Source: a virus. From it: a stretch of 64,000 bases of DNA. The stretch spans positions 1 through 64,000 of IMG/VR virus record IMGVR_UViG_3300042868_012479. The stretch is one strand, 5' to 3'. Numbering within the stretch: position 1 is the first letter of the stretch; the number at the start of each line of letters is the position of its first letter. The notes beneath the pieces were generated by a model. The model did not search any database and was not told the DNA's origin. It saw only the letters and a list, made by a program, of their open reading frames with translations. Both the position numbers and the translations under genes were made by a program. Shown piece by piece: positions 7,624 through 45,100 of the stretch.

Positions 7624-8277
7624 ATGTCATACGTCATTGCAAATATCCCGCCGATTGCCTGCTACGTCCGCAAGGAGTACCTGCGCGACTTACAAGACAG
7701 CCACGGAGAATTCACTCCTGCCTATTGGGTAACCGTCAAGGCAATCCGCCACCGCGCCCTATACATTGAGGCATTCCTCCCAGAGTACGGCGCCCTGTAC
7801 GACAAGCTGCCGATCAGCGCCTTTGTCTGGAGGCCGGAGACCCCAAGCCCCGACTTGAAGCTGGGTGACCTGCAGCTCTGGGACGCTATCTCCCCCCAGC
7901 TGAGCGTGATCGAAAAGGCCGTGCTCAAGAATATGCGGTGTAAGTTCCGAACCCCGGCAGGCATATGGGGAGAGGGGCACTACCTCTTCACCGTTGACAT
8001 GGTACATACTGACCCGAACGAGATCGACGCAAACTGGGCGCGTGTTCCCTCTGAGCATAAGTCCTATAACTTTATCCGCCTAGACAACGGGCAATTTGCC
8101 GCCCAGCCAAACAACCGGGTGCTGTGGCTTGATGAGGCTATTGTGGCAAAGGAGCCAAAGATGCCGAACTTTAAGGTCAGCACCAAGGAGTTCTCGGCTG
8201 AGGGCGGCCGCTGGGGCCTGGGTGACGAAGACTCGTGGACATATGAGCCGGCGCAAAATAAGGAGAAAGCCAAGTGA
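7624..8277 (+). CDS. Conserved phage protein of unknown function
   Basis: YGALYDKLPISAF and HKSYNFIRLDNGQFAAQPNNR, motifs I recall from aquatic phages. Confidence 0.85.
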   Translation: MSYVIANIPPIACYVRKEYLRDLQDSHGEFTPAYWVTVKAIRHRALYIEAFLPEYGALYDKLPISAFVWRPETPSPDLKLGDLQLWDAISPQLSVIEKAVLKNMRCKFRTPAGIWGEGHYLFTVDMVHTDPNEIDANWARVPSEHKSYNFIRLDNGQFAAQPNNRVLWLDEAIVAKEPKMPNFKVSTKEFSAEGGRWGLGDEDSWTYEPAQNKEKAK

Positions 8278-15769: not shown

Positions 15770-15798
15770 TTGACGCCTGCCAAGGATGAGCGTACTAT
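15770..15798 (+). promoter_or_regulatory. Sigma70-type promoter
   Basis: TTGACG-17-TACTAT; AAGGAGG RBS downstream. Confidence 0.75.
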
Positions 15799-15836
15799 TG
15801 TTTGGTAGAAGAAATCTCTTAGTAAGGAGGCTTAGT

Positions 15837-16208
15837 ATGGACACCCAGATGGGCTCGGAGCTCGTATTTATTCTTTCCCAGATTAGCGTGGGCCGCAAGA
15901 ACGCCATTACCTATAAAGACCTTTCCCAGCGCACCCGGTGGAACAGCCGGGCAATCCAGCTGGCGGTTGAAGAGTTGCGGAATGTTTGGGAGCAGCCAGT
16001 TTGCTCGGCCTCCGACGCCCCTGCCGGAATCTATCTTGCCACCAGCTCTGAGGAGCTTGAGGCCTGGTCGAACATGCAACGTGAGCGCGCCAGGAGCCTC
16101 CTGCGCTCTTCTTGGGCTATCCGAAAAATTGCCAAGAAGTGGAAAGTCCAAGAGGATCAGGCTCGCCGCGACAACGCAATGCCTGGAGAGGTGACGCTCG
16201 GGCTGTAG
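15837..16208 (+). CDS. Winged-HTH phage protein
   Basis: GRKNAIT..DL...VEELR...PVCS...GIYLA. Confidence 0.75.
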   Translation: MDTQMGSELVFILSQISVGRKNAITYKDLSQRTRWNSRAIQLAVEELRNVWEQPVCSASDAPAGIYLATSSEELEAWSNMQRERARSLLRSSWAIRKIAKKWKVQEDQARRDNAMPGEVTLGL

Positions 16209-16219
16209 CGTGTTATAGT
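16191..16219 (+). promoter_or_regulatory. Promoter for the tRNA-like RNA
   Basis: GTGACG-17-TATAGT with extended TG, 5 nt before GGGGCCG. Confidence 0.7.
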
Positions 16220-16224
16220 CCCCT

Positions 16225-16296
16225 GGGGCCGAGTAAACGCCAAAGGTCATCATGCCCGAGGGTAACGGCGGGTGTAACTCCCGCCCGGCTCCACCA
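16225..16296 (+). ncRNA. 72-nt Ala-identity tRNA-like / tmRNA tRNA-like-domain RNA
   Basis: GGGGCCG/CGGCTCC stem with G3.U70, ACCA end, T-arm GCGGG-TGTAACT-CCCGC; no canonical D or anticodon arm. Confidence 0.7.
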
Positions 16297-16307
16297 AAGG
16301 AGAAGGA

Positions 16308-16532
16308 ATGCCAACTTACGACTACAAGTGCGCAAAGTGCGATATCGTCCGAGAGACCGTCCGCAAGATGAGCGACGACTCTAAGGAGCTATGCCTTGTC
16401 TGCAGTGGTGAGATGCGCGTCGTTTTCAACGCCCCAAAAATTACCTACAAAGGTTCCGGTTGGGCTTGGCAAGAAAAAATACCGCAGGAGACTCACGTGA
16501 TTATGGGCGCTGATCCTTCAAAGAAAGACTAA
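16308..16532 (+). CDS. FmdB-family zinc-ribbon protein
   Basis: MPTYDYKCAKC...CLVCSGEMR...YKGSGW. Confidence 0.85.
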   Translation: MPTYDYKCAKCDIVRETVRKMSDDSKELCLVCSGEMRVVFNAPKITYKGSGWAWQEKIPQETHVIMGADPSKKD

Positions 16533-16860: not shown

Positions 16861-17189
16861 TCCCCGTCCCCCGTCGCCCTTCGCCCCAATCCCCCCCAAA
16901 AAGTTCTTGGACTGCGCATCCTACACCACGAAAGATCGGAGTGCCAACTTTGCGTGTGTCCTGCTTAAAAAAATAAAACGCGCCCAAATTTGAGCACAAA
17001 AAGCACTTGTTCCCTCCCAAGAGAACTAGGCCCCAAACACAAAGGTAGTTACTAACAAATACTATTCCCCAGAACCCAGAGTCCCTGAGCCCCCATCCCC
17101 CCCTCTCCTTAAAGGTTCTCCCCCCCTTCCCCAAAACAGGCCACAACAAAAAGTTGCACAGAGCTGACTTCGTGGAGTATGATCCCGGC

Positions 17190-18005
17190 ATGGGAAATAA
17201 AAAGCAACGGAACAAAGACCAAAAGGCAGACCAGCCCCCCAAGGCCTCGCCCTTATCTTTGTATTCGGTCACGCCAATTATCGACGGGAAGGTGAACCAC
17301 GGATACGTGCATTCGCTCCTGGGGATTCAGCAAGCCTGCTTAACTGTTGGCGTGCCATTCTCCTGGTCGTTTGTCATCGGCAACTCCATGCTGGTTGCAG
17401 CTCGGAACCGGTGCGTCGCGCAGTTCATGGATGAAACAAAAGCTACCCACATGCTGTTTCTCGATGCTGACATTTCAGTGCATTGGGAAGATGTCATGAT
17501 GGCAATGATTGCGGACAAGGACATAGTGGCGCTGCCATGCCTTAAGCGAGCCATTGACTGGGACCGAAGTGTTGGGATGATGCGCAAGCATCCGGAGGTT
17601 TCTGCCGAAGCAATTCAGGGAGTCCTTGGTATGCCAAACTTTGTGTTGGACCCCGCCGCACCATATCCCACAAAGCAGGATGAAGAGCTAGGCCTGCTTG
17701 AGGCCACGCACGCTGGGACCGGGGCAATGATTATCTCGCGGCGAGCTTTCGAGAAATACCAGAAGGCCTTTCCGGACCGCTGGTACCTTGAGGATGTCGG
17801 CAGCGTGACCCATCGAACAGTTGAGTATTTTCGTTACGGCCGGCGAGATAATCACTTCATTGGTGAGGACTACACGTTTTGTGACGACTGGCGATCTATC
17901 GGTGGTAAGATCTATGTCAAGTTGAATGCTCGGTCGACACATGCCGGCCAAGTCAACCTAAAGTACGACCTGGAAGCCCTTAGGGCTCTAGCTCGAGAGG
18001 AGTAA
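17190..18005 (+). CDS. GT-A fold glycosyltransferase-like protein
   Basis: ARNRCV..F, HMLFLDADI, GTGAMIISR, GEDYTFC; TATGAT-N6-ATG start. Confidence 0.8.
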   Translation: MGNKKQRNKDQKADQPPKASPLSLYSVTPIIDGKVNHGYVHSLLGIQQACLTVGVPFSWSFVIGNSMLVAARNRCVAQFMDETKATHMLFLDADISVHWEDVMMAMIADKDIVALPCLKRAIDWDRSVGMMRKHPEVSAEAIQGVLGMPNFVLDPAAPYPTKQDEELGLLEATHAGTGAMIISRRAFEKYQKAFPDRWYLEDVGSVTHRTVEYFRYGRRDNHFIGEDYTFCDDWRSIGGKIYVKLNARSTHAGQVNLKYDLEALRALAREE

Positions 18006-18006
18006 C

Positions 18007-18219
18007 ATGGAAGTCGCACTATTTATTGGCGGAACACTTTTTGGGGTTCTTATCGGCTCGGTAGCTGGGTTTGGTTCGGCCATGCCAAGGATTGAACAAG
18101 CCCGGCAAGAAGGGTTCATGATGGCATTTGCAAACTTTGCTGAAGCAGCTCAAAAGGCTATGGAAGAGCAGAAGACAAAGGGCGCCGGATTCACCTCAAG
18201 CCACAAGAAGACAAACTAA
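18007..18219 (+). CDS. Small membrane-anchored protein
   Basis: GAGGAG RBS; N-terminal TM. Confidence 0.7.
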   Translation: MEVALFIGGTLFGVLIGSVAGFGSAMPRIEQARQEGFMMAFANFAEAAQKAMEEQKTKGAGFTSSHKKTN

Positions 18220-19016
18220 TGCCGGCAAAGAAGTACCCTAAGCTAATGTTGGCAACGCCAACCCTAGACGGGCGCGTGTCGGCAGAGTATGCACAATCTT
18301 TGTCGGGGCTAAAGACGGCGCTTTATCAAAGCAGCATCAATTTTTCTATGCAGCTGCACATTGGCAATTCGCTGCTTGCTGGGGCGCGAAACCATTTAGC
18401 AGACGACTTTCTTAGGAGCGAAGCTGACTGGCTGCTCATGGTTGACTCTGATATTGCATACCGGCCAGAGGATGTCCTTGCGGCGTTGCCACACTTGGAA
18501 GACGCAGTAATTGGATTTCCGTGCTCAAAGAAGTTTGCCAAGTGGGATCGCGTTGCTAAGACCCTTCGGGACAACCCAGACTTTCCGGCAGACGGAATCC
18601 CCGCCATTCTTGGAGATGCAAACTTTCACCTTGGGGTTAGCGATTACCTTCGCCCAAATGATTATGGCCTGGCAAAGGTCAAGTGGATCGGCACCGGTGT
18701 GATGCTTGTAGCAAGGAGCACACTGCAAAAGATTATGGCAGACAACCCGGATGACAAGACCATGGTGAACGGAAAAATCATTCACGAGTTCTTCCGGTAC
18801 GACATGGAGTGGGCCGAAAAAGATGGAGTAAAATACAAAGACTACGCCGGAGAAGATGTATCTTTTTGCAACCTTGCAAGGAAGTCCGGATTCAAGGTGT
18901 ACGCAAAGCTTGACGCGCTAACAACGCATGTTGGGTTTAGCTTGTACCGCTTTGATGCTACGGCAGTAGCTCGTCTAAAGAACGTTCCAAGCCAGCTGGA
19001 ATCGCAGAAGAAGTAA
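18219..19016 (+). CDS. GT-A fold glycosyltransferase-like protein (paralogue of 17190)
   Basis: ARNHLADDF, LLMVDSDI, GTGVMLVAR, GEDVSFC. Confidence 0.8.
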   Translation: MPAKKYPKLMLATPTLDGRVSAEYAQSLSGLKTALYQSSINFSMQLHIGNSLLAGARNHLADDFLRSEADWLLMVDSDIAYRPEDVLAALPHLEDAVIGFPCSKKFAKWDRVAKTLRDNPDFPADGIPAILGDANFHLGVSDYLRPNDYGLAKVKWIGTGVMLVARSTLQKIMADNPDDKTMVNGKIIHEFFRYDMEWAEKDGVKYKDYAGEDVSFCNLARKSGFKVYAKLDALTTHVGFSLYRFDATAVARLKNVPSQLESQKK

Positions 19017-19452
19017 CCCGGGCCTCTTTTAGGGGATAGGCGTATACAAGCCAGTCTGACCTAATCTCTCGACCAGGAAGGTCCTCCCCTTCAATAATAG
19101 GTATGTAAGCGCAAACATTTGGGAGCTTTGATAGTTCCCGCAGTGCCTCATGCGCCTTCTCCCTGGTTGTCTCAAGGATTTGATCAGGCTTGGGTATAAG
19201 GCCGATCTTTGACCAGCCAATCATGTGCTCAGAAACGGCATCGCCAAAATCAAGGGCAACAATCATTGGCTGGGGGAGTATTACCGTTGTGAACTCTTCC
19301 TCTGCGCGGATTCCCAAATTATGCAAAATAAAAGAAACGCGCTGCTTGCTAATGCCCATCATCCTGCCAATCTCGTTGGCGGTATAGCCGTCTAAGAAAA
19401 GCTCGCCGATTTCTAGGTTCCGCTCGACCTTAATGCCCTTACGAACAGTCAC
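18958..19452 (-). CDS. HTH protein (sigma70 region 4-like N-terminus)
   Basis: GYTANEIGRMMGISKQRVSFIL; GGAGG before GTG 19452. Confidence 0.7.
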   Translation of the reverse strand: MTVRKGIKVERNLEIGELFLDGYTANEIGRMMGISKQRVSFILHNLGIRAEEEFTTVILPQPMIVALDFGDAVSEHMIGWSKIGLIPKPDQILETTREKAHEALRELSKLPNVCAYIPIIEGEDLPGREIRSDWLVYAYPLKEARVTSSAIPAGLERSLDELLP

Positions 19453-19609
19453 CGCACGCCTCCACAGACCCTTCATGCTCCGGGCACACAAAGAAAGCAA
19501 TCAAGCAGACTTCACATAGGCGGGAGACAAGGTGCTCGGCGCACGGGTCGCCACAGCCCTCATCTTTCCACTCAAGGTCGTCCAGGGTCACTTCTGTTCC
19601 TGTGGTCAT
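19439..19609 (-). CDS. 56-aa Cys-rich protein
   Basis: Read by hand; ATGA coupling; CxxH/CxxC motifs. Confidence 0.6.
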   Translation of the reverse strand: MTTGTEVTLDDLEWKDEGCGDPCAEHLVSRLCEVCLIAFFVCPEHEGSVEACGDCS

Positions 19610-19791
19610 GAGCACTTCTTGTGTCTGTGGATGTAACGCTTAGTGGCCGAGCCGGCCGCGCTAATAACAATTGACAAAATAGTAGTAATTTCATTAGAAA
19701 ACATAGGCTTGTCGCAAGACGCGCAGCGTTGGCCGGTCAGGGCCGGAGCCTTTTTCTCTTTGCTTACCGAAGTTTTACCTTTTGGTGCCAT
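19606..19791 (-). CDS. Small basic Zn-finger protein (MAPKGK...)
   Basis: GGAGG RBS; CxxC...HxxC. Confidence 0.7.
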   Translation of the reverse strand: MAPKGKTSVSKEKKAPALTGQRCASCDKPMFSNEITTILSIVISAAGSATKRYIHRHKKCS

Positions 19792-19947
19792 AGCTCCTCC
19801 AGTATTGGCGGAGGGCAGCAATTACGGCCCGGCAGTTCGTCCGTCGACGTACCTTGGCCAATTACTCACCCAACCGACTGGGTTGAACCCCCCGCCTCAC
19901 CTTGGATCAACGTCCAAGGGCGCCGTATCGCGGTCGGAAGGCGATAC
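19792..19947 (-). ncRNA. Highly structured 5' leader / riboswitch-like RNA
   Basis: Two hairpins then a multi-stem domain closed by GGCGGGGGGT/GCCCTCCGCC; its CCTCC can alternatively pair with the RBS. Confidence 0.55.
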
Positions 19948-19953
19948 CAAACC

Positions 19954-19982
19954 AAAGTACCGATACCAATAGTCTGGGTCAA
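19954..19982 (-). promoter_or_regulatory. Sigma70-type promoter
   Basis: TTGACC-17-TACTTT. Confidence 0.7.
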
Positions 19983-20021
19983 CAAACGCAAAATCTACGC
20001 TAGCTGTGGTATAGTCCAGCC

Positions 20022-20249
20022 ATGAATCAGCACACACCGCCCACGCCTAAGGCAGCGGCAATCTGGTACCTGTGGTCTTCGGCATTTCACATGTCGATGA
20101 AGCTTGAGCCGCGATGGCCAGATGACCTAGAGCCGTACTCTGTGCAATTTCCCGGAAACTATGATTCGGGAGATTTTGTTCGGCTTTCTGAAGCTGAGGC
20201 CCAATGGCTTATTGAAATCAAAACTAGGAGGGACCATGGACAGGCGTAA
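20022..20249 (+). CDS. Hypothetical protein, probably leaderless
   Basis: TGGTATAGT-N6-ATG. Confidence 0.6.
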   Translation: MNQHTPPTPKAAAIWYLWSSAFHMSMKLEPRWPDDLEPYSVQFPGNYDSGDFVRLSEAEAQWLIEIKTRRDHGQA

Positions 20250-20892
20250 CCTACTTATTGTGCCCACAAGGAATCGTCCGGAAAGCGCACTAGAGCTTCT
20301 TCATGAATTCAATAAAACAGCAGTGATGTCTGACATTGTTTTTGGGCTTGATGACGACGACGTCAGCGACTACTCTGCAGAAGTCCTTGAGCGCTCCGAG
20401 CGCAACCCGAGGCTTCGGATGGGTGGGACGCTCAACCTTCTTGCAGTTAAGTATGCGGAAAAGTACGACTATTTATCGTTCATGGGCGACGATCACCGGC
20501 CTCGAACCAAGAGCTGGGATCTTCGCCTTGCAAATATGATCGACGAAGGTCCTGGGCTTGCATATGGCAACGACTTGCTTCAGGGGGCAAATCTACCAAC
20601 AGCTGTGATGATGTCGGCTAGCATTGTTGAGGCCATCGGGTACATGGTGCCGCCAGTTTTGGTCCACATGTACATGGATAACTTCTGGAAAGATCTCGGC
20701 ACGGCGCTTGGCTCGCTCTGCTACCGTCATGACGTAGTCATTGAGCATATGCATTACCTGGCCGGAAAATCAACGATTGATGCCGGATACAAAGAGGTCA
20801 ATCACCAAAGTGTTTATGAAAAAGACGAAGAGTCTTATCGTAAATATACGGAAAGCCAATTCCAGAAAGATGTAAGGAAAATCCAAAAATGA
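20236..20892 (+). CDS. Glycosyltransferase family 2-like protein
   Basis: IVPTRNRP, FGLDDDD, FMGDDHRP, HMYMDN, IEHMH; AGGAGG RBS. Confidence 0.85.
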   Translation: MDRRNLLIVPTRNRPESALELLHEFNKTAVMSDIVFGLDDDDVSDYSAEVLERSERNPRLRMGGTLNLLAVKYAEKYDYLSFMGDDHRPRTKSWDLRLANMIDEGPGLAYGNDLLQGANLPTAVMMSASIVEAIGYMVPPVLVHMYMDNFWKDLGTALGSLCYRHDVVIEHMHYLAGKSTIDAGYKEVNHQSVYEKDEESYRKYTESQFQKDVRKIQK

Positions 20893-21764
20893 ATATCCTC
20901 ATTACCGGACACCGTGGATTTGTTGGCAGGCATTTTCAGAAGTTTTACGAAGAGCAGGGGCACACCATTCTTGGGGTAGACATCGTTGACTCAATGGACG
21001 TGCGAAAATTCTTTAGCCTGGCAAACCACACAAAGTTTGATCTGGTAATTCATCTTGCTGCAGTCGTTGGCGGCCGGGCGAAGATTGAGGGGCATCCGCT
21101 ATCGGTTGCCGTTGATCTTTCTATTGATGCAGAGATGTGGCAGTGGGCCATTAGGACGAAGCAGCCACGAGTTGTGTACTTCTCCTCATCGGCAGCCTAC
21201 CCAATAAAGCTTCAAACAAAGCAGTCGCATAAGAAGCTTAGCGAGTCAGACATTAACCTTAACGACATCAGCAACCCAGACCTGACCTACGGCTGGTCAA
21301 AGCTTACAGGGGAATACCTGGCGCAATTCGCGGAGGCAGAGGGCGTGCGCACGCACGTATTCCGACCGTTCTCCGGCTACGGCGAGGATCAGGCGCTTGA
21401 TTACCCATTCCCATCATTTATCCAGCGAGGGAAGAATCGAGATAACCCGTTTGTGATTTGGGGCGACGGAACGCAAACGCGGGATTTTGTGCATATTAGC
21501 GACATAGTTCGGTGCGTTGACGCAGCCGTAAAGCAAGATTATGTCGGGCCCTTAAACATCGGCACTGGTCACCCGACAAGCTTCCAGCAGCTTGGAGAAA
21601 TGGTGGCTAAGGCAGAGGGCTATTTCCCCAAGTTCCAATTCCTCACCGACAAGCCCGAAGGGGTGAATTGGCGGGTGGCCGACATATCCTCTATGCTGAA
21701 GCTATACACGCCAAAGATTGACCTTGAAACAGGGATCAAGCGCGCACTTAGCGCAAGGGAGTAG
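20889..21764 (+). CDS. NAD-dependent nucleotide-sugar epimerase/dehydratase
   Basis: ITGHRGFVG, HLAAVVGG, SSSAAY, YGWSK, WGDGTQTRDF. Confidence 0.92.
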   Translation: MNILITGHRGFVGRHFQKFYEEQGHTILGVDIVDSMDVRKFFSLANHTKFDLVIHLAAVVGGRAKIEGHPLSVAVDLSIDAEMWQWAIRTKQPRVVYFSSSAAYPIKLQTKQSHKKLSESDINLNDISNPDLTYGWSKLTGEYLAQFAEAEGVRTHVFRPFSGYGEDQALDYPFPSFIQRGKNRDNPFVIWGDGTQTRDFVHISDIVRCVDAAVKQDYVGPLNIGTGHPTSFQQLGEMVAKAEGYFPKFQFLTDKPEGVNWRVADISSMLKLYTPKIDLETGIKRALSARE

Positions 21765-28161: not shown

Positions 28162-29937
28162 ATGAAGTTCTTAACCAATCTTGACCTTCAGAAAAATGAG
28201 CTGCAGAACGCCACGCTACAGAACCTTGCCACCGACCCGGCATCGCCAGTTCAGGGCCAGATTTATTACAACACCGCCTCTGACGCCATCAAGGTCTACG
28301 ACGGTGCCGCATGGATTACATTGGCCACCGGCGGCGGAACAGTTACTTCGGTAACCGCCTCCAGCCCGCTCGCCTCTTCCGGCGGCAATACGCCAAACAT
28401 TACTATCCAGGACGGCACGACCAGCCAAAAGGGTGCCGTACAGCTTGAAAACTCCACCTCCAGCACCTCAACGACCACGGCTGCTGTTCCGGCCTCCGTC
28501 AAGTCTGCTTACGACCTGGCCGCAAGCAAGGCAAGCACCTCAAACAAGTTAAGTGATTTTGCAGCAACCTCTTCTACCGAGCTTGCTGGCGTTATCTCTG
28601 ACGAGACCGGCACAGGCGCTCTGGTGTTTGCCAACAGCCCAACGCTCGTTACGCCTGCACTTGGCACGCCATCAAGCGCTACCCTTACAAATGCAAGCGG
28701 TCTTCCAATTAGTACTGGTGTTTCTGGCCTTGGAACCGGTGTTGCCACGTTCCTTGCAACACCATCTTCTGCAAATCTGATTTCTGCTATTACCGATGAG
28801 ACCGGGACTGGCGCGCTAGTTTTTGCCAATACCCCAACGCTTAACGGCGCGACTATTACTGCAACAGGGCAGACGCCAACAATTCACGGTATCTACCTGC
28901 CAGAAACGCACGGTATTTACTTTGAGGGCGCAACTGCTGACGCTCACGAGACATTCCTATACGTTGTAGACCCAACCGCAGACCGAACAATTACCCTTCC
29001 AGATGCGACGGGTACGGTTGCGTTGACCGCAAACAAGCTGAGCTCCTTTGCAGCAACTTCTTCAAGCGAACTCGCTGGTGTCATCTCCGACGAGACGGGC
29101 ACTGGTGCGTTGGTATTTGCCAATACGCCAACACTCGTTACGCCAAACATTGGAGCAGCAACCGGAACAAGCCTTGTTCTTTCTGGAGATCTAACGGTAA
29201 ACGGAACCACGACAACCATCAACTCAACCACCCTTACGGTGGACGACAAGAATATTGAGCTTGGATCAACGGTAACCCCAAGCGATGCCGGTGCGGACGG
29301 CGGCGGTATTACCCTCAAGGGAACAACGGATAAGACCCTCAACTGGGTTGACGCTACGGACGCATGGACTTCTTCGGAGCACTTCAACCTGCTCACCGGG
29401 AAGAAGTTTTATATTGCGGGGACTGAAGTTCTTAGCGGAACGACCCTTGGCAGCGGAGTCACCGGCTCAAGCCTGACCTCTGTCGGCACAATCGCCACCG
29501 GCGTGTGGAACGGCACGGCGATTGCCATTGCAAACGGTGGTACTGGCGCAACTGACGCTGGCGCTGCCCGCACGGCCCTCGGCCTTGCAATCGGCACGGA
29601 CGTCCAGGCATATAACAGCACACTTGCTGCCGTTGCTGGTGGAACCTATACCGGAGATGACAGCATTACAACCGTTGGCACGATCTCTGCTGGTACGTGG
29701 AACGGCACGGCAATTGGTGCCAACTACGGCGGAGCGCTTCGCTACAACACCAGCGCCACCTGGACTGCTGGAGAAGCTAAGACGGTTACCCACAGCCTTG
29801 GAACCAAGGCAGTAGTCGTTTCCGTGTACGATTCTGGCGATGCGGCAGTGATTTGTGACGTAGTAACGGCCACGACCGACACCCTGACCGTCACGATCAG
29901 CCTGGCCGGGACGTATCGAGTCGTCGTTCTAGGGTAA
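28162..29937 (+). CDS. Fibre/spike protein with internal repeats
   Basis: T/G/S-rich; three DETGTGALVFAN repeats; IAIANGGTGAT..AARTALG. Confidence 0.8.
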   Translation: MKFLTNLDLQKNELQNATLQNLATDPASPVQGQIYYNTASDAIKVYDGAAWITLATGGGTVTSVTASSPLASSGGNTPNITIQDGTTSQKGAVQLENSTSSTSTTTAAVPASVKSAYDLAASKASTSNKLSDFAATSSTELAGVISDETGTGALVFANSPTLVTPALGTPSSATLTNASGLPISTGVSGLGTGVATFLATPSSANLISAITDETGTGALVFANTPTLNGATITATGQTPTIHGIYLPETHGIYFEGATADAHETFLYVVDPTADRTITLPDATGTVALTANKLSSFAATSSSELAGVISDETGTGALVFANTPTLVTPNIGAATGTSLVLSGDLTVNGTTTTINSTTLTVDDKNIELGSTVTPSDAGADGGGITLKGTTDKTLNWVDATDAWTSSEHFNLLTGKKFYIAGTEVLSGTTLGSGVTGSSLTSVGTIATGVWNGTAIAIANGGTGATDAGAARTALGLAIGTDVQAYNSTLAAVAGGTYTGDDSITTVGTISAGTWNGTAIGANYGGALRYNTSATWTAGEAKTVTHSLGTKAVVVSVYDSGDAAVICDVVTATTDTLTVTISLAGTYRVVVLG

Positions 29938-42191: not shown

Positions 42192-45100
42192 TTACCTCGG
42201 CCGTGCGTAGCCCATGGCCCGAAGTGATCGGGTCTGAGCTGCTGCAACTTTTTCAGCCAGCCGGTCGATGTCGGCTGCAGAGTTTAGCTGCGGATTATTG
42301 ATAACAACGGAGGCGCTGATTGTACCACTGCCACCACCGATTGACATGCTCCCAGGGCCACGTAGTTTGTGGTTTGGAACGATGCTGCCAAGGTTGGATG
42401 GAACCATAATCTCTGGCCCACGCTCGCCCACAAGGTAGGCGTTGCCAGGGAAGACAGAGCCGCCAAGGGCTCGGGCACCAGTAACATTTTGATACAGCTT
42501 CTTGTCAACGTTAAAGATTCCCTTGCCGCCGGCCATGACAAAGCCTTGGGTTTGCTTCTGGAACTTGTTTTGCATCATGTTTGTGTAGATCCAATCACCA
42601 ATAAACCCGCCAATCAAGCTGCCAACCCAACCGCCAACAAACGGAATAGGCAACAAGCCGCCAAGGAATTCGCCAACTCCTGATCCAAGCATGCCAACCA
42701 TCGTTCGATCAACGCTTCCCCCGCCAAGAAGGGTTGCGGCAATGCCAGCAAATTTTGCAAGGCTGCCGCCAATTCCAGGAAGCATCGTCAGAAGATTCAT
42801 GAATACGGACGATCCAAGGGTTGCAATATTGAGGTTTCCGGTAGCCCACATCGTTGCTATGTCGGCGACAATGCCCGCAATTCCTTGAGCCTTCTTGGAC
42901 GCGCCAAACTTCAGGTCCATGCTCTTAAGCTTAGAGTTTGCTTTTGGCAGGGATGCAGGAGCGCCTGGAACTCGCCATCCTTCTGCGGCGGCAAGGTTGT
43001 CAACAAGTTTTTGAGCTTTCTTTGGATTTACTGCCTCTTGGTCTAAATTATCGAGGCGAGTATTTGGAAGAACTCCATTCTGCCTTGCAAATCGAACGAA
43101 TGCCTCCGCATATGTTTCATGAGGGAAGGTATTGTATGAGCTTGTGGCCGATTTCAGGAAATTAAACGAGCCAGCAGCTCTAATAACTTTCCCGGCTGAT
43201 CCAAGCATATTTCCAAGCATATTTCCCTTAGTTCCGGGGCGATTTCGTGGATTCCTCATGTCGACAATATGGCCGATTTCGTGAACCAGCGTTTCCATCA
43301 TTCCAGACTTTGCATCATTAAGCTTTTCACTTCGGAAAAGAGGGTCCAAACTTTGCAGCCTTGCCTCGGAGCCTTTCCTTACTGGCCTTGTGGCCATAGC
43401 AATTTGATCAGGGCCAAACTGTCGAGTATAGGCATTTCCGGCAACACCCCATCCCAGCGTGTATTTTTCATCGTTAAGGAAATCGATAACAAAATTTGGC
43501 TTAAAGTCTTCCGGTGCAATCTTCAATACATTTCGAACAAGTTCGTCAATTTCTGGAACAGAGAAAGGCAAGCGTACTCCGTCATCAACTTTAATTTTTC
43601 CCCATGGAAATTCATACATTGTTGAAGCAACTGGAGTTTTTCGAAGAGGAAGCTCAAGATTTAGGAAATCAAGAAGCTTGCCTTGCTGCGTCATCTTTGC
43701 TGGCTGACGAGTGCCGCCATCTTCCAGCCAGCTATAATCAGTGCCAGTGCCATCAGCAAATCCGCCCATGATTGGGCCGGAGCCAGGTCGGGCCTTCTTG
43801 TTGTTTCCCTTGCCGGTTCCAGGATTAGTGTAAGAACGAATCATTTCTTTGATTTCTTGCATGCGGTTGAGCCGGTCAGTGTAGCTATTTACCGCCACTT
43901 CATCCCAAATTCTGCTATACCCCCCGATGGAATGTCCCCCATATGAACCATCTTTAGCCCAGTACTTGTCAAAATTTTTCGGGTGGGGTGGGTATGCTAA
44001 CCAATTTTGATGACTCGCTCTGCGAGATCGAGTAAACCGCATAGCCTTGTCGACAACATCTGTGTCAAAAACCAAGCCTCGAAGGATGTCAATAACTGTA
44101 AGCCCGTGATCCATAATTGCTGATTCACTTGCGCGGTCTCTAGCGGATGTTGTGCCCATTCGCAGGTTTGCTGCGTGCAATGCATTGCTGCGCTCTACGT
44201 CAGCAACCATATCCATGTTCTGAAATTGTTTAGCCCACTCTAAATACTGCTCGTTTTCTGAGCGATCTTTCTGGTCAGGAAGTAAAGCTGTTTTTCGAGC
44301 ATATTCTGCAAGATATGATTGAGGAAGTTTTATTCTATCGTCCAGCCGCAGGCTGGCGATTTTTTCTTTAAGCGGATGGCCGGCATTAACAAACCAAGAT
44401 TTTGCAAGCCCAATAGCATCAGAAACCAAAGGAATTTCAAAATAATCTCTGTTGTATGGAGCTAGCGCTATGTTAAACTCTGGGAAATACGTTGGCCAAG
44501 TTGCGGCCCAGCGGCGATCTCTCTCCGCCCACGGGTTTACCCTATCGGAGTCATCCATGCGGACCCGCGAGGCCCCCGGTGTGCCTGCGGCAAATCCGCG
44601 CATGCGGCCCGTCTTTCCGGCCATAAGGGCGCCGGCTGAGGACTTGAGGTAGGTAGGAAGCATGTGGTTAGGGACAATGTCGAGTTGGCCGCTTCCGCCA
44701 ACGCTGAGCATCTCTGGGCCACGCTCGCCGACCATGTACTTGCCACCGGGAACAATTGATCCACCGGCTGCCTTATTTGCGTTTGGCAGGGTGATATTAG
44801 TAAGGAGCGCGGCGATCTGGTAAAGGATAGCGTCAACGTTTGTATCAAGGCCAGAGAGAAGCAAAGAATTTTGTTCTGGGCCAACAAGACCCTTCAGCTG
44901 TGCTTCTAGCCTTTGGATTTCCATTCGTGCCAGTACGCCGGCTGCGGAAACGGCTGGGCCGTATTTCTTTTTTGCAGCCGGGTCGGTTTCAAGCTCGACG
45001 AGCTTGGCCTGAATTTGCTGCTGCTTAACTCGCAAGGAAGCAAGCTTGCCTGTAATTGCATCCTCGACCCTTTGGGTCGGAACGTACGTTTGCTTTGGCT

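Follow-up and report, generated by a model that had tools for sequence, protein, structure and literature searches.

We describe a 72-nucleotide (nt) RNA element in an uncultured freshwater phage, which resembles the tRNA-like part of bacterial transfer-messenger RNA (tmRNA) and has neither an anticodon nor a tag-encoding frame. It occupies positions 16225-16296 on the plus strand of the first 64,000 nt (the window in the following) of the virus record IMGVR_UViG_3300042868_012479. On present evidence, the best explanation is that it is a derived representative of a family of tag-less mini-tmRNAs that is widespread in phages and has gone unannotated; the published prototype of this kind is an RNA of Mycobacterium phage DS6A. 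We hold it very probable that 16225-16296 is a real structured RNA of this family. We nevertheless file the window copy as a divergent variant and not as a proven tmRNA member, mainly because it has lost two bases, G12 and C56, that are found in members outside its own group. Trans-translation, in which tmRNA acts, is the main bacterial ribosome-rescue pathway; that the job of the element concerns this pathway has, in our judgement, about an even chance.

Sequence and predicted fold

The element can be divided into the following parts; the evidence is given in brackets.

16225..16296 (+): complete 72-nt anticodon-less tRNA-like RNA of the putative tag-less mini-tmRNA type (sequence, consensus fold, conservation, covariance and Rfam alignments)
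16225..16231 (+): acceptor 5' strand GGGGCCG, pairing with 16286-16292; G3 (16227) stands opposite U70 (16290) (sequence)
16232..16238 (+): D-loop analogue AGUAAAC, 7 nt, without GG, with G9 and A11 retained and A in place of G12 (family alignment)
16239..16263 (+): predicted two-part hairpin where helix P2 of tmRNA would sit (RNAalifold, 8 sequences)
16264..16266 (+): junction AAC; A41 is invariant in the family, C42 at least 90% conserved (family alignment)
16267..16285 (+): T-arm with a 6-bp stem, GGCGGG/CCCGCC, and the loop UGUAACU (sequence)
16286..16296 (+): acceptor 3' strand CGGCTCC, discriminator A73 and encoded CCA, which with A73 spans 16293-16296 (sequence)

The ends of the RNA read GGGGCCG...CGGCTCC-A-CCA, and all seven pairs of the acceptor stem are formed (G1-C, G2-C, G3.U, G4-C, C5-G, C6-G and G7-C). 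An earlier note, made from the letters of this DNA alone, had described an acceptor of seven base pairs with G3.U70, A73 and an encoded CCA, and all of this can be read directly in the sequence. The note had also seen neither an anticodon nor a tag frame, and rightly so: the 35 nt between acceptor and T-arm hold no anticodon arm, no 7-nt anticodon loop and no tag frame, and ARAGORN finds no tRNA, no tmRNA and no tag in the 64-kb window. The proposed T-arm, GCGGG-TGTAACT-CCCGC, is present, but its stem has six base pairs rather than five, and the sixth pair, G16267-C16285, extends the acceptor/T stack to 13 bp instead of 12. The T-loop, which the note called non-canonical, does differ from the consensus UUCRANY; UGNAACU is, however, typical of the phage family and of some genuine tmRNAs in metagenome-assembled genomes (MAGs) of Bacillota. 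Three ordinary tRNAs of the same phage (Ile-TAT, Asn-GTT and Lys-TTT), located some 56 kb away, have canonical TTCGA T-loops and an encoded CCA, so the T-loop of the element is not a genome-wide oddity.

For the middle of the RNA, the note had proposed two small hairpins. These appear in the minimum-free-energy fold of the single sequence, but the consensus of eight aligned sequences favours one two-part hairpin that spans G15 to U39. Its outer part consists of G15.U39, C16-G38 and C17-G37, its inner part of G21-C32, G22-C31 and U23.G30, and its loop is CAUCAU; the pair 20:33 is G-C in three of the eight sequences, A-U in two and broken in three, including the A.C of the window. We also considered an anticodon reading of CAUCAU and rejected it, as the loop has 6 nt and no cloverleaf forms.

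The tRNA, tmRNA and Rfam scans that the note had suggested bear out that the element is not a normal tRNA. At gathering scores, Rfam gives no match in the window, and a search of 301 nt at E-values up to 10 returns only noise. Cloverleaf, D-arm and an NGC anticodon arm, as expected of a canonical tRNA-Ala, are missing, with no ARAGORN gene and no Rfam tRNA match. The form found in the window thereby escapes every standard detector.

Conservation in the closest relatives

The protein encoded upstream of the element retrieves 13 viral loci, and in 12 of them the element stands in the same place, followed by a gene for a Zn-ribbon protein. We refer to these closest relatives, the window's own group, as group 1. 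In six of them, the element is 93-99% identical to the window copy, compared with 76-93% for the last 300 nt of the upstream open reading frame (ORF) and 78-83% for the downstream ORF; no other stretch of the locus is conserved as well. The few substitutions within it fall on positions 8, 10, 12, 17, 20, 33 and 34 and on the third base of the T-loop. In every group-1 locus seen, the Zn-ribbon ORF adjoins the element.

A wider family in phages

Related elements were retrieved with sequence patterns. The first pattern, composed of the T-arm core and the 3' end of the window element, finds 16 viral loci, among them those of another group, unrelated to the first, in which the element is 97 nt long and precedes a terminator-like hairpin. 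With a looser pattern, 49 metagenome loci are found, of which 32 were classed by script as anticodon-less, 52-143 nt long and equipped with a complementary 5' strand; the remaining 17 comprise six full-length tmRNAs (ARAGORN), two loci in tRNA clusters and nine unassigned ones. ARAGORN, run on 21 anticodon-less loci, calls none of them. When position 70 is left free, 43 viral loci (19 unique) are obtained, and T70, a 5' GGG and a complementary 5' strand are present in 43/43. When instead the T-loop is left free and acceptor and T-stem are fixed, 18 viral loci emerge, with the loops UGUAACU, UGAAACU, UGCAACU and, in two loci, GGCAGCU. Tag-less RNAs of this type are therefore diverse and common in uncultured phages, given that one narrow pattern yields 43 viral and 32 metagenome loci. 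Among cultured phages, a BLAST search of the 1-kb locus and three family members against 50,697 phage records found no relatives, or short chance matches at E-values of at least 0.2.

In the genomes of 185,579 species, the pattern of T-arm plus 3' end with the acceptor of the window has no match, and the looser pattern has 12, nine of which are full tmRNAs (eight from MAGs assigned to Bacillota/Clostridia, the ninth from a bacterial MAG without classification).

The consensus layout of the family is an acceptor, N-G-Y-A-G, a variable insert, R-A-C and the T-arm. In an alignment of 24 sequences, G9 and A41 are invariant, and A11 and C42 are at least 90% conserved; the window copy keeps all four of these unpaired bases, G9, A11, A41 and C42. 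Of 37 unique elements, 34 have an insert that folds into a single enclosed domain, a count without a null run, and the 37 inserts have a median folding z of -1.03, with 5/37 below -1.64. The window copy shows the features by which the family is recognized, namely a 7-bp acceptor with G3.U70, a 6-bp T-stem, a UGNAACU loop, a terminal ACCA and a length within 52-143 nt.

The note had called for a covariation test among phage homologs, and its outcome speaks for the proposed stems. We aligned 18 diverse members, setting aside group 1, duplicates and two loci (L065 and L082) that MAFFT had placed out of register. In this alignment, 99.6% of the stem cells are paired and 6 of the 13 pairs have changed on both sides, compensatory changes being found in acceptor and T-stem alike; when the partner strand is shifted by 1-3 columns, the pairing falls to 62-71%. 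Of the seven acceptor pairs, three are changed in both partners, and G3.U is found in 18/18, with G3 free to be A and yet G throughout the family alignment. The retrieval pattern left the outer three pairs of the T-stem free; pairing is seen there in 53 of 54 cells, and each of the three has undergone double changes.

Some variants of the pattern deserve mention in their own right. The commonest viral subgroup, of 78-81 nt and with the acceptor GGGCGCG (L068, L074, L092 and L118-L144), has no promoter-like hexamer and lies amid Ala/Pro-rich, coding-looking sequence. Since these elements directly follow such sequence, they would have to be excised from a longer transcript. In the viral contig L021 (301-317, minus strand), the exact T-arm 17-mer of the window stands beside an apparent tRNA anticodon arm with the loop CUUUUAA, and the UGUAACU T-loop may thus also occur in an ordinary phage tRNA. 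The UGCAACU T-loop is further present in tRNA-Ala-like genes inside tRNA clusters of two metagenome contigs (L103:501-606 and L058:501-576, both minus strand) and of a Chloroflexi MAG (L110:451-526, minus strand); the L103 copy resembles, by eye, a tRNA-Ala(CGC) overlooked by ARAGORN.

Relation to tmRNA and to the DS6A RNA

The tmRNA model of Rfam, RF00023, was matched against 20 member loci; in six, it aligns end to end (model positions 1-374, with the middle skipped), and the alignment coincides exactly with the element. The six scores are 29.4, 29.4, 25.4, 23.3, 20.2 and 15.1 bits, with E-values between 1.3e-8 and 0.016, and none attains the gathering score of 47. Two loci, L065 and L079, reach 29.4 bits. 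L082, at 23.3 bits, has the acceptor stem, the T-stem and the GUAAC junction of the window copy.

The closest published counterpart is the tmRNA of Mycobacterium phage DS6A, which consists of the tRNA-like domain (TLD) alone, without a coding sequence (CDS), and is an entry of the tmRNA Website (PMC4131195, PMC11915505). We located it at 28478-28560 of JN698994 (L145:579-661), in the gap between gp33 and gp34, where the GenBank record has no feature. It scores 43.2 bits with RF00023 and 20.6 bits with R1, our covariance model of the phage family. Any homology of the window copy to the tmRNA TLD beyond the stems would run through intermediates, from 10.6 bits for the window over 23.3 for L082 and 29.4 for L065 and L079 to 43.2 for DS6A. 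Both the window RNA and that of DS6A are phage-encoded and about 70-85 nt long, and both have a 7-bp acceptor with G3.U70, the stem GGGGCCG/CGGCUCC being identical; both combine a tmRNA-type acceptor and T-arm with a short hairpin as the body, have no anticodon arm and no tag frame, and lie unannotated between protein genes. They differ in the T-loop, which is the canonical UUCGAUU in DS6A and UGUAACU in the window RNA, in the T-stem, of 5 and 6 bp, respectively, and in the D-loop analogue, which is longer and tmRNA-like (..UGGUGGUCGAC) in DS6A and has 7 nt and no GG in the window RNA; the CCA encoded by the window RNA is replaced by CUA in DS6A.

With the TLD of standard tmRNAs, the window RNA shares the acceptor with G3.U70, A73 and CCA, the pair G7-C66, the AC before the T-arm and a helix that leaves where P2 does; its AAC junction would correspond in position to the GGAC that precedes the T-arm in the Rfam tmRNA consensus. 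Unlike these tmRNAs, it has no mRNA-like domain, no resume codon, no tag ORF with its stop, no pseudoknots and no GG..UUCGAC in the D-loop analogue, and its T-loop departs from UUCRANY, with G and U at positions 55-56. A 6-bp T-stem and a UGCAACU loop like those of the phage RNAs are found in the nine MAG tmRNAs from Bacillota/Clostridia and the unclassified bacterium. Full-length tmRNAs with a UGCAACU T-loop (G55) and a 6-bp T-stem were seen in the metagenome loci L059, L060, L081, L095, L101 and L102 and in the MAG loci L107, L108 and L111-L117, with tags such as ANDNYALAA and ADKTALPAAA.

CDS-less tmRNAs are also described from organelles, with a form of about 65 bp in Mallomonadaceae plastids and others in mitochondria; they are likewise tag-less and TLD-sized and are thought to serve stalled ribosomes together with SmpB (PMC11915505). 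These organellar forms are vertically inherited and replace the resident tmRNA, whereas the window RNA is virus-borne and would act beside the full tmRNA of the host. Beyond them and the remark on DS6A, we found no phage family of such RNAs in a literature search that mostly did not extend to subscription journals. DS6A is the only phage TLD-only tmRNA in print, where it appears as a side remark, and the window adds a divergent form.

Promoter, neighbouring genes and RNA libraries

The element is flanked by these features:

15786..16208 (+): upstream ORF of 140 amino acids (aa), phrog_2113, function unknown, with its stop codon TAG at 16206-16208 (PHROG match)
16191..16196 (+): -35-like hexamer GTGACG (promoter scoring)
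16211..16219 (+): TG-extended -10 element TGtTATAGT, with TATAGT at 16214-16219, 5 nt ahead of G1 (promoter scoring)
16297..16302 (+): Shine-Dalgarno sequence AAGGAG of the next gene, beginning at the first base past CCA (sequence)
16308..16532 (+): downstream ORF of 74 aa, Zn_ribbon_8 / FmdB-like (PF09723, 39.4 bits at a cut-off of 34.4)

A dedicated promoter, GTGACG-17 nt-TATAGT, had been predicted in the note and is present as described; it scores 9/12 and has a TG before the -10 hexamer. TG-N-TATAGT is invariant in 7/7 unique group-1 sequences, and the 5-nt spacer between the -10 hexamer and G1 varies in sequence and is constant in length. As the -35 hexamer lies within the last codons of the upstream ORF, its conservation does not count as evidence of its own. 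Across the family, 11 of the 34 unique elements have a -10-like TANNNT at the right distance; at ten control positions obtained by shifting, the count is 0-3 of 34. We rejected this hexamer as a family-wide trait, as seven of the 11 positives belong to the window's own group, which makes it a trait of that group. An antisense RNA of the P1/P7 C4 type, acting on the ribosome-binding site of the next gene, was likewise rejected: CCAAAGG in the RNA and the leader have the same sense and are not complementary.

Four RNA-library runs contain parts of the stretch, in the form of Logan contigs that carry no information on ends, strand or level and may include DNA carry-over. The contigs that cover the element come from three studies (16149-16294 in run X2, 16245-16298, and 16191-16341 in run X4) and have depths of 2-7. 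A contig from run X3 matches the 3' half of the element from 16245 on and has a different 5' part ahead of it, which begins with the same acceptor strand followed by AGUAG with G12; to judge from these bases, it is a further variant of the group that retains G12.

Alanine identity and a possible mode of action

The determinants of alanine identity in the acceptor branch of bacterial tRNAs are A73, G2-C71, G3.U70 and G4-C69 (PMC9976931, Table 1), and the window RNA carries all four. In the family, G3.U70 is never G-C or A-U, while pairs 4-6 change freely. The window RNA resembles tRNA-Ala minihelices, in which the same four determinants sit on a coaxial acceptor/T stack (PMC9976931) and which are charged by alanyl-tRNA synthetase (AlaRS) (PMC11392972). 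It differs from these constructs in that it is a natural phage gene with a conserved 35-nt insert and conserved junction bases, and in its stack of 13 bp instead of 12. The unpaired bases G9, A11, A41 and C42 would, by analogy, lie at the elbow, where SmpB contacts tmRNA; in Escherichia coli tmRNA, A334 is part of the pocket for Trp122 of SmpB (PMC8363625). A TLD-only tmRNA accepts peptidyl transfer in vitro (PMC3895274), and a DS6A-like molecule is reported to inhibit trans-translation in E. coli, as related in PMC4131195 and PMC11915505.

The central proposal of the note, an alanine-identity mimic of tRNA or tmRNA, is thus borne out in part. In its favour are the determinants, the presence of G3.U70 in 43/43 viral loci and the end-to-end alignment of family members and DS6A with tmRNA, whereas the window copy itself reaches only 10.6 bits and has lost G12 and C56. 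Taken as a whole, we lean slightly towards a selected small-RNA gene, the product of which would be charged by AlaRS and would compete in, or short-cut, trans-translation.

In such a scheme, host sigma-70 RNA polymerase would start at or next to G1 from the TG-extended -10 promoter, and the 3' CCA end would be freed by tRNA-type 3' processing enzymes of the host, with the transcript continuing into the Zn-ribbon gene. Host AlaRS would then add alanine via the acceptor-stem determinants, and the RNA, with or without SmpB and EF-Tu, would compete with the tmRNA of the host. As a result, rescue and tagging could be blocked, as with the DS6A-like molecule in E. coli, or stalled peptides could be accepted without a degradation tag. 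What the sequences show is the structure and its conservation, the membership in the family, the marks of alanine identity and a conserved promoter; the start site, the processing and charging of the RNA, its binding to SmpB and any influence on trans-translation are what we infer. If the RNAs are indeed charged and engage SmpB or ribosomes, phages would routinely manipulate ribosome rescue, a hardly studied route of host takeover, and the natural variants (52-143 nt, with G12/C56 swaps) would map the minimal recognition needs of AlaRS, EF-Tu and SmpB.

Objections and alternative explanations

A number of points weigh against this explanation. Taken alone, the fold of the window sequence is not significant (-30 kcal/mol, z = -1.61, with 14 of 200 shuffles folding equally well). 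Part of the pairing in the covariation alignment was imposed by the retrieval: its pattern dictated the three inner T-stem pairs and positions 70-72, and only acceptor 5' strands with 7/7 pairs were admitted. Model R1, trained without group 1, scores the window copy 57 bits (E 5.7e-11), its sole match below E 0.8 in the window and its sole match genome-wide; this score is partly circular, with about 19 positions fixed by a pattern derived from the window element itself, and R1 also matches the 3' ends of tmRNAs at 40-52 bits, so that it lends weak support. RF00023 aligns with exactly 16225-16296 at 10.6 bits (E 0.005) when 81 nt are searched and has no match when 301 nt or 17 kb are searched; within the alignment, only the stems and ACCA match, and the T-loop and the D-loop analogue do not. 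There is no terminator-like site between the RNA and the Zn-ribbon ORF, whose Shine-Dalgarno sequence abuts the CCA, and the contigs X2 and X4 run across both proposed ends, so that expression as a discrete 72-nt RNA has the standing of a prediction.

The most specific objection arises from positions 12 and 56. Outside group 1, G12 and a C as third T-loop base (C56) are present in 28/28 unique members that are in register, and the seven unique group-1 sequences have neither. Their 12/56 states are A/U in the window and its closest relatives, U/A in two, C/A in one and A/A in two, and four of the seven are Watson-Crick combinations. A change of G19 to C in tmRNA prevents SmpB binding (PMC8363625), and if G12 corresponds to this G19, binding may be weakened in the window copy. 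If 12:56 instead corresponds to the G19-C56 elbow pair of tRNA, A-U and U-A could be compensatory and the contact retuned, with the pair broken in three of the seven sister variants. With G12 and C56 absent, SmpB binding seems less certain for the window copy than for other members.

We also considered that the window subgroup may be a viral RNA for rescue without tagging rather than a simple sponge for SmpB, which we regard as distinctly unlikely. Such an RNA would be transcribed early, from a sigma-70 promoter of its own, and form the 5' leader of the Zn-ribbon gene; it would be charged by AlaRS and enter ribosomes stalled on mRNAs that were broken in infection, for example by host defences of the RNase type. 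The nascent chain would be taken over and the ribosome recycled, and phage proteins would remain unmarked for proteolysis. The states A12/U56 and, in sisters, U/A would then reflect a retuned elbow contact and not decay. In a bolder form, the adjacent Zn-ribbon protein could be a dedicated partner that replaces SmpB.

Other readings do without ribosome rescue. The element might be a tRNA-like punctuation mark or leader that acts in cis and is not chargeable, either cut by RNase P and tRNA 3' enzymes or serving as a 5' cap, and that defines or stabilizes the mRNA of the next gene. The t-elements of plant mitochondria are tRNA-like processing signals of this kind beside mRNAs and need no alanine identity; the phage element similarly places an acceptor/T-arm mimic directly beside an mRNA and differs in that alanine identity is invariant in its family. 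A role in cis would agree with the lack of a terminator and the Shine-Dalgarno sequence right past the CCA, an arrangement that recurs in unrelated contexts with the start codon and Shine-Dalgarno sequence about 0-20 nt past the CCA (L063, L065, L071/L062, L093, L069, L076 and L086), as well as with the 78-81-nt subgroup, which follows coding-looking sequence without a promoter-like hexamer, and with RNA-library contigs that span both ends. However, RNase P and 3' processing need no G3.U70, which is yet kept in all 43 viral loci while pairs 4-6 vary, and such a signal does not account for the conserved unpaired elbow bases G9, A11, A41 and C42; the acceptor branch also has the full set of AlaRS determinants. 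The downstream genes are, moreover, mutually unrelated across the family, and some members stand alone before a terminator-like hairpin (L041/L043 and L061) or in a tRNA cluster (L075). We consider a signal in cis unlikely. An alanine-type acceptor end could also be used outside ribosome rescue, as a decoy or sponge for host factors or for defence toxins that attack the acceptor stems or 3' ends of tRNAs, as an alanine donor to a non-ribosomal transferase or as a partner of a phage protein such as the Zn-ribbon protein, and we judge this to be quite improbable. It would account for the conserved identity marks and CCA, the loss of G12 and C56 in group 1 might signal release from SmpB or elbow constraints, and the Zn-ribbon ORF is an invariant neighbour in the group-1 loci seen; a precedent is AcrIIIA1, a phage protein acting together with fragments of tRNA and tmRNA (PMC11662646). 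Against this, the phage genome has no homologs of FemAB, LPG_synthase_C or Leu/Phe-transferase, the other groups of the family lack the Zn-ribbon neighbour, and nothing in the window indicates a particular defence system. Among the uses suggested in the note, titration of SmpB, AlaRS or EF-Tu and the donation of alanine are candidates; a nuclease decoy, likewise suggested there, could not deceive anticodon nucleases for want of an anticodon loop and is useful only against enzymes that act on acceptor ends.

That the element has no function at all, as an attachment-site remnant of a host tmRNA or tRNA-Ala, a tRNA pseudogene or a chance fold, is scarcely credible to us. The 3' ends of tmRNA genes are common integration sites of phages, and the z-score of the single-sequence fold would suit a chance structure. 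Genomic islands at ssrA are mentioned in PMC11915505. But the element has both acceptor strands, surpasses the rest of its locus in conservation and belongs to a family with covarying stems; the 94%-complete genome has no tyrosine integrase; and of the 185,579 species' genomes, none contains the pattern with the exact acceptor, nine of the 12 matches to the looser one being full tmRNAs. An attachment-site remnant, which the note had named as an outcome that would refute its proposal, is by the same evidence close to excluded.

The phage genome

The window belongs to a virus record of 82.5 kb, rated 94% complete, and its source is an uncultured tailed phage of about 82.5 kb, which encodes terminase, head, tail and protease genes. 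The element is single-copy in this genome. Searches of the genome for SmpB, RF-1/ArfB-type proteins, FemAB, LPG_synthase_C, Leu/Phe-transferase and tyrosine integrase found none of these families.

A 3824-aa ORF (42192-53666, minus strand) had suggested an N4-like phage, which we rejected, as there is no match to a virion RNA polymerase family. It matches only a ddrB-like ParB domain (residues 232-309) and two PHROGs of unknown function and is followed on the same strand by ORFs of 1690 and 963 aa; the three may encode giant proteins that belong to the virion or are ejected. Shortly past the RNA locus, at 17154-21764 (plus strand), three glycosyltransferase-like ORFs (phrog_1574 twice and phrog_14945) and a NAD-dependent sugar epimerase/dehydratase form a sugar-modification module of the phage. 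Finally, a 217-aa ORF at 7624-8277 (plus strand) has a very strong match to phrog_3704, annotated as ferredoxin (E 6e-87), and looks like an auxiliary metabolic gene.

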